From Dictyostelium discoideum (taxonomy: Eukaryota): a stretch of DNA of 64,000 nucleotides. The notes beneath the pieces are model-generated. The model was given only the letters and a program-made list of their open reading frames with translations, did not search any database and was not told the DNA's origin. Shown in pieces: positions 18,062-18,473 of this stretch. Both the position numbers and the translations under genes were made by a program. Every line of letters starts with the position of its first letter. Within the stretch, counting starts at the first letter, position 1. The stretch is from the NCBI GenBank assembly GCA_000004695.1, contig CM000154.2:1376001-1440000 (forward strand). Reading direction: 5' to 3'.

Positions 18062-18473
18062 TTAAACATAGATACCACCAGCTAATAAAACGAAAAATAA
18101 ACCCAAACCTAAACTCATTGATGCAATTAATGCGAGTGTTAATTCCCTAAAGATATTCTTTTGAGCTTTAGCTGTGGTCATTTCAGATCTATATTAAATT
18201 GAAATGATATTAGTATTTAGTAGGTTATTTATTATTTTATTATCATTATTATTATTATTTTTTTGTTTATGAAAAAAGAAAAAAAAGAAAAAAAAAGTGT
18301 ATTTCCATTTTATATGTAGTGTGTGAAGTTAAGATATTTTTAAAAATAATCTGATTATATGAAATTTACACAATAAATGTTGCAAAGAAAGCAAAACCAA
18401 TTACGCAAAATAAGAATGCACAAACTGGATAAAACACTATATCAAGTGGACTTGTATAAGGTACTAAAGCCAT
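18062..18473 (-). CDS. tmem258: TMEM258/OST5-like oligosaccharyltransferase subunit, 77 aa, two TM helices. Exons: complement(join(18062..18188,18370..18473)).
   Basis: Absent from the ORF track because it is split. Exon 1 reads MALVPYTSPLDIVFYPVCAFLFCVIGFAFFATFI(V). A GTAAAT donor (minus 18369-18364) and an ATATAG acceptor (minus 18194-18189) join it, with the split codon giving V, to SEMTTAKAQKNIFRELTLALIASMSLGLGLFFVLLAGGIYV*. This matches human TMEM258 block by block, from memory: YTSP..., ...[28 protein letters not shown]. Confidence 0.7.

Follow-up and report, generated by a model that had tools for sequence, protein, structure and literature searches.

We found that a short two-exon gene on the minus strand, at positions 18062..18473 of the window, very probably encodes the Dictyostelium discoideum orthologue of TMEM258, the protein known as Ost5 in yeast and a non-catalytic subunit of the ER oligosaccharyltransferase (OST). 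The window is the whole stretch of DNA that was analysed, 64,000 nucleotides in length, and positions refer to it unless another locus is named. The gene consists of the following features:

18473..18370, minus strand: exon 1, 104 nt, from the ATG (18473..18471) through codon 34 and the first 2 nt of Val35; it encodes the N-terminus with the PYTSP motif, predicted to be luminal, and transmembrane (TM) helix 1

18369..18189, minus strand: intron, 181 nt, phase 2, donor GTAAAT, acceptor ATATAG

18188..18062, minus strand: exon 2, 127 nt including the TAA stop (18064..18062); it encodes the last nt of Val35, a basic loop (K42, K45, R49), TM helix 2 and the C-terminal GGIYV

17992..17997, minus strand: AATAAA hexamer ~65 nt past the stop codon, a candidate polyadenylation signal picked out from the sequence only

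An earlier note on this DNA had described two minus-strand coding blocks outside the ORF track, joined through a GTAAAT...ATATAG intron into a 77-aa product. Both blocks are present as minus-strand ORFs, at 18366..18473 (35 aa) and 18062..18181 (39 aa); they surface only if the minimum ORF length is set to 20 aa and are therefore absent from the default 60-aa ORF track. We enumerated all GT dinucleotides in 18344..18413 against all AG dinucleotides in 18174..18273. A single GT..AG pair across both ranges, that of the 18369..18189 intron, leaves the frame open, and the proposed model is thereby recovered exactly. Every other scanned pair closes the frame, and the alternative junctions were rejected. 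The joined CDS comprises 231 nt, i.e. 76 codons and a stop, and the product, MALVPYTSPLDIVFYPVCAFLFCVIGFAFFATFIVSEMTTAKAQKNIFRELTLALIASMSLGLGLFFVLLAGGIYV, is thus 76 aa long rather than 77; in the longer figure, the stop codon seems to have been counted as a residue. At the 5′ end, an in-frame TAA (18479..18477) lies 6 nt, or two codons, upstream of the ATG, so that no N-terminal extension is possible within the same exon. The GC content amounts to 32% in each exon, 15% in the intron and 21.5% in the whole window, a contrast that fits coding islands in AT-rich Dictyostelium DNA. The assignment of the AATAAA hexamer as a polyadenylation signal is tentative, given that chance hexamers are common in DNA of ~85% A+T.

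The joined protein matches the Pfam family PF05251 (Ost5) with an E-value of 1.8e-21 and 76.6 bits, compared to a gathering score of 27.4. The alignment pairs protein residues 5–76 with positions 2–73 of the 73-position profile and runs through the exon junction without a gap. Searched alone, exon 1 matches profile positions 2–32 (E 4.7e-5) and exon 2 positions 36–73 (E 3e-11). Since each exon matches the proper half of the Ost5 profile, and in the proper order, the match is not due to chance. A single-sequence search against all PDB chains yielded one genuine match, human TMEM258 in the OST-A and OST-B structures; the chain from the OST-A cryo-EM structure (6s7o_C) aligns its residues 5–79 to residues 2–76 of the Dictyostelium protein (E 2.9e-12). 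Profile and protein searches of this kind had been proposed as a check on the TMEM258/OST5 family assignment made in the earlier note, and both bear it out. Matches to PsbT (E 0.0056) and to movement protein p6 (E 0.068, below the cut-off) were rejected as hydrophobic-helix noise.

For the family view, we searched 1.84 billion representative proteins exhaustively and obtained 153 representative clusters at E<=1e-3, most of them 70–90 aa in length and with C-termini in register with the query. A word-indexed homologue search, which returned just the query itself and the orthologue from Polysphondylium violaceum, was too narrow for this purpose. In an alignment of 43 sequences, all of which score with PF05251 (43/43), the consensus reads PYxSPV...G...FFVYE.T..K..R....EL..A..AS.FLG.G..FLLL..G.YV. 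The near-invariant residues G26, F33, G62, F67, L70 and G73 are all kept in the protein encoded in the window, and its PYTSP and GGIYV motifs agree with the family consensus of an N-terminal PYxSP and a C-terminal G-x-Y-V. The exon junction is free of gaps in alignments to 40 or more homologues. Searched against the PDB, a profile built from the 43 homologues gives an E-value of 1.9e-34 for TMEM258 and a weak, marginal value of 0.18 for yeast Ost5 (6c26_5); strong on the one and marginal on the other, it places the protein with the TMEM258 type and not with the divergent fungal type.

Orthologues are found in D. firmibasis (L002, 10001..10664) and in P. violaceum (L001, 118..457), and each is annotated as a 76-aa Ost5. 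The intron lies at the same codon (after ..ATFI, inside Val) and in the same phase in both species, with a length of 181 nt in D. discoideum, 433 nt in D. firmibasis and 109 nt in P. violaceum. Between D. discoideum and D. firmibasis, the two exons are 87.5% and 92.9% identical, the proteins are 96% identical, and the codon differences comprise 17 synonymous and 3 non-synonymous changes. The introns of the two species differ in length and align no better than expected for AT-rich DNA. Read from sequence comparison, the shared intron position, taken with the pattern of substitutions, is characteristic of a gene that is spliced and subject to purifying selection. The extra length of the D. firmibasis intron (L002, 10105..10537) consists almost entirely of (ATT)n and then (ATTT)n microsatellites; here an intron has clearly grown, between sister species, through the expansion of simple repeats.

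These data bear directly on whether the two blocks are joined at all. They could instead be left unspliced, as separate micro-ORFs of 35 and 39 aa or as non-coding DNA with a chance hydrophobic resemblance to the family: both blocks possess an ATG and a stop of their own, and hydrophobic low-complexity peptides do yield spurious weak matches, of which the PsbT match is an example. Against this stand the match of the two blocks to consecutive halves of one profile, with a joined score far above that of either block alone, the gap-free junction in 40 or more homologues, the intron position that is kept in three species while intron length and sequence vary, and the 17:3 split between synonymous and non-synonymous differences, which indicates purifying selection acting on the joined frame. 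We therefore regard the unspliced alternative as extremely improbable and treat the locus, hereafter OST5, as one spliced gene.

The reference annotation and UniProt already contain the gene, with its splice and its family assignment, and none of the three is new. The 76-aa product is identical over all residues to the D. discoideum AX4 entry EAL63259.1 / XP_636763.1 / UniProt Q54J38. With 76/76 identical residues, the same start, splice and stop must have been annotated; we find no difference between our model and the AX4 deposit, and the two are the same gene. In the older NCBI naming, the entry is a 'UPF0197 transmembrane protein', whereas its UniRef name is 'Dolichyl-diphosphooligosaccharide--protein glycosyltransferase subunit OST5'. 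EAL63259.1 is located on a 5,125,352-bp contig, which also carries the neighbouring alg5 and S8 peptidase products; the gene products of the window agree exactly with those of the AX4 reference chromosome. In a literature search with the gene accession, with UPF0197 and with TMEM258 in Dictyostelium, we found no study of the Dictyostelium gene. A 2018 review of the Dictyostelium ER tabulates eight OST-related subunits, and Ost5/TMEM258 is not among them (PMC6025073).

The statement that small split genes are often missing from automated annotations holds for at least one assembly and fails for the reference: Q54J38 is present in the AX4 reference, whereas the gene went uncalled in a newer D. 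discoideum assembly, GCA_054883475.1. On its contig CM142511.1 (L003), the 412-nt gene is identical base for base at 8476..8887, yet in the table of called genes for this locus, the S8 peptidase (6001..8037) is followed directly by the striatin-like gene (9416..11998). At 90% identity, the OST5 cluster has 2 members (AX4 and D. firmibasis), compared to nine in the alg5 cluster, which come from D. citrinum, D. dimigraforme and several D. discoideum strains. The difference suggests that OST5 is also uncalled in the proteomes of D. citrinum, D. dimigraforme and other D. discoideum strains. If the gene were lost systematically from newer annotation, amoebozoan OST inventories would be one subunit short. 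OST inventories compiled across eukaryotes from automated proteomes should in any case include a search of the DNA as well as the predicted proteins. The locus is a concrete case of a small split gene lost from annotation, and its biological weight is small. As a check of method, the reading of raw sequence recovered an intron-split gene of 76 aa with exact boundaries.

We looked up the exact OST5 product in assembly-derived contigs, which might represent transcripts across the junction, and none is on record. The Logan contigs L004–L008 (2.1–2.4 kb), which stem from several read-run assemblies, contain the S8 peptidase gene alone with short flanks and look transcript-length; for the OST5 product, no counterpart to these contigs is on record.

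OST5 is embedded in a stretch of plus-strand genes, among them alg5, which the earlier note had correctly placed as a near neighbour. The neighbourhood comprises the following features:

9100..9177, 9343..9738, 9843..10109 and 10320..10562, plus strand: alg5, four exons, 327 aa

11850..12530, plus strand: alkaline-ceramidase family gene, with the Pfam label taken from orthologous loci

13900..14649, plus strand: gene for a BAR_3-domain protein, with the Pfam label taken from orthologous loci

15586..17622, plus strand: subtilisin-like S8 peptidase (XP_636762.1 / Q54J39), 678 aa, with a Cys-rich EGF-like C-terminal region

18474..19011, no strand: intergenic region of ~540 bp, AT-rich with long poly(A)/poly(T) runs, between the divergent OST5 and striatin-like genes

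19012..21601, plus strand: striatin-like WD40 gene, with a first exon from the ATG at 19012 and a main ORF at 19337..21601 that starts MLEYALQQER

The S8 peptidase gene and OST5 are convergent, and their stop codons lie 440 bp apart. On the other side of OST5, region 18474..19011 presumably serves as the promoter region for both OST5 and the striatin-like gene, and a Striatin gene adjoins Ost5 in D. firmibasis as well. The first exon of the striatin-like gene accounts for the N-terminal motif conserved in striatins; in D. firmibasis, the orthologue combines PF08232 (Striatin) with WD40. Scans of the whole window with Rfam (at gathering thresholds) and for tRNAs gave no RNA gene, and hence none in the OST5 intron or its flanks. 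Upstream of alg5, runs of N at ~6950..7200 and ~8700..8800 are intergenic and represent assembly gaps or masking. Within alg5, the exon boundaries each lead into a GTATGT donor, and a long run of (ATT)n occupies part of the third intron (~10140..10250).

The alg5 product, encoded within 9100..10562, is identical to EAL63257.1 / XP_636759.1 / Q54J42 (DDB_G0288321), a dolichyl-phosphate beta-glucosyltransferase, and its D. firmibasis orthologue carries PF00535 (GT2). A second N-glycosylation gene at a distance of 7.5 kb might be more than coincidence and mark a functional neighbourhood through co-regulation or a shared chromatin domain, and the gene order GT2, ceramidase, BAR, S8 peptidase, Ost5, striatin is indeed kept in D. 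firmibasis and in another D. discoideum strain. D. firmibasis, however, is a close relative, as the protein identity of 96% attests, so that the common order is mere synteny. Three unrelated genes separate alg5 from OST5, on the strand opposite to OST5. Within 4 kb on one side of the P. violaceum Ost5, we find genes for a PEP mutase/ICL, a pseudouridine synthase and a Senescence/PH protein, and no GT2. By a rough estimate, moreover, some pair of N-glycosylation genes would fall within 8 kb by chance with p ~0.2 in a genome of ~34 Mb with ~30 pathway genes. A functional neighbourhood is therefore highly unlikely, and we take the proximity to alg5 as coincidence. Very unlikely, too, is the wider proposition that newer automated Dictyostelium annotation systematically drops OST5/TMEM258 and that the alg5 linkage may be a co-regulated N-glycosylation neighbourhood. 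The two halves of this proposition differ: annotation loss has partial support, as a point of annotation quality, whereas for co-regulation the sole positive support would be the synteny between close relatives.

The proposed role of the protein follows from its counterparts in OST. In metazoans, the counterpart of yeast Ost5 is TMEM258; the yeast protein together with Ost1 makes up OST subcomplex I, where both Ost5 helices pack on the single TM helix of Ost1 (PMC7226087). Ordered phospholipids touch TM2 of Ost5 at the interface with the Stt3-Ost4-Ost3/6 subcomplex, and yeast OST5 is non-essential, yet required for optimal activity (PMC7226087). The same source tabulates the exact function of Ost5/TMEM258 as 'not clear', in yeast and human alike. 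The spliced mRNA would yield a 76-aa protein with two TM helices (~12–39 and 47–71), a short positive loop and a PYxSP N-terminus; following the positive-inside rule and the human and yeast OST structures, both termini would face the ER lumen and the loop the cytosol. As in the homologues, the two helices would be packed against Ost1/ribophorin I, at its single TM helix, and so make up OST subcomplex I; lipids at TM2 may assist the docking of this subcomplex to the catalytic subcomplex of STT3-OST4. The subunit would thereby aid OST assembly, stability and the full efficiency of N-glycosylation.

Candidate partners are encoded in the genome. Dictyostelium has STT3A, DC2, KCP2 and OST3 and no STT3B (PMC5674889), and its listed OST subunits are Ost1, Ost2, Ost3, Ost4, Ostc, Wbp1, Swp1 and Stt3 (PMC6025073); from these gene lists, partner subunits for the protein exist. 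As the Dictyostelium OST has not been studied biochemically (PMC6025073), membership of the complex is deduced from homology alone. With this basis in mind, we infer that the protein associates with OST and affects glycosylation in Dictyostelium.

The main site of action of a protein of this family might also lie outside OST; it could, for instance, modulate LINC complexes at the outer nuclear membrane. One study places Drosophila Kuduk/TMEM258 in the outer nuclear membrane, where it is reported to modulate LINC complexes and the architecture of the nuclear envelope (PMC5584142, J Cell Biol 2017), and the continuity of the ER with the outer nuclear membrane makes a second site of action possible. 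TMEM258 is, however, an integral part of the human OST-A and OST-B structures, and the Dictyostelium model superposes on it; PF05251 as a whole is defined as OST subunit 5; and in the 43-sequence alignment nothing distinguishes the Dictyostelium sequence from its OST-bound homologues. We judge a main function outside OST to be very unlikely and retain the assignment as an OST subunit.

Structure prediction allows a direct comparison with the known OST subunits. Hydropathy peaks at residues 17–35 and 53–71, on either side of the loop with K42, K45 and R49, in a pattern like that of the human protein. In an AlphaFold model based on the alignment (pLDDT 85.4), the helices span 12–39 and 47–71, and peaks and model together support the two TM helices described in the earlier note. 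The best PDB match of the model is human TMEM258 (6s7o_C), with a TM-score of 0.90 and an rmsd of 1.3 Å over 75 columns, and the next best is yeast Ost5 (6ezn_E), with a TM-score of 0.83.

Human TMEM258 (PDB 6S7O/6S7T, chain C) has 79 aa compared to 76 and aligns over its full length without gaps at ~40% identity. The two proteins have in common the YTSP motif, which the earlier note had read at the N-terminus and which the alignment confirms, the basic loop, and a C-terminus ending in IYV. The second helix shares the pattern E-L-x-x-x-L-[IV]-A-S...G-x-G...F-x-L-L...G-I-Y-V. The C-terminal motif quoted in the earlier note, KELL.SLVAS..GFG.LFLLL.VGIYV, is the human sequence, and its Dictyostelium counterpart reads RELTLALIASMSLGLGLFFVLLAGGIYV. 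The Dictyostelium protein lacks the first 3–4 residues of the human N-terminus, and its TM1 is Cys/Phe-rich and loosely conserved. Human TMEM258 is resolved in OST cryo-EM structures, whereas the Dictyostelium protein is known here from its sequence and a predicted model.

Yeast Ost5 (PDB 6EZN chain E, 6C26 chain 5) likewise forms a hairpin of two TM helices, is of comparable size and belongs to the same Pfam family. Its structure superposes on the predicted Dictyostelium structure with TM-scores of 0.78–0.83 at ~19% identity in the structural alignment; a single-sequence search misses it at E<=1, and the family profile reaches it with the marginal value given above. Yeast Ost5 is assigned to OST subcomplex I with Ost1, and the same place is assigned to the TMEM258 type (PMC7226087). 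In contrast to human OST-A and OST-B, Dictyostelium has a single A-type STT3, which may pair with OST3 or with DC2/KCP2 (PMC5674889), so that the Dictyostelium complex differs in its make-up from both human complexes.
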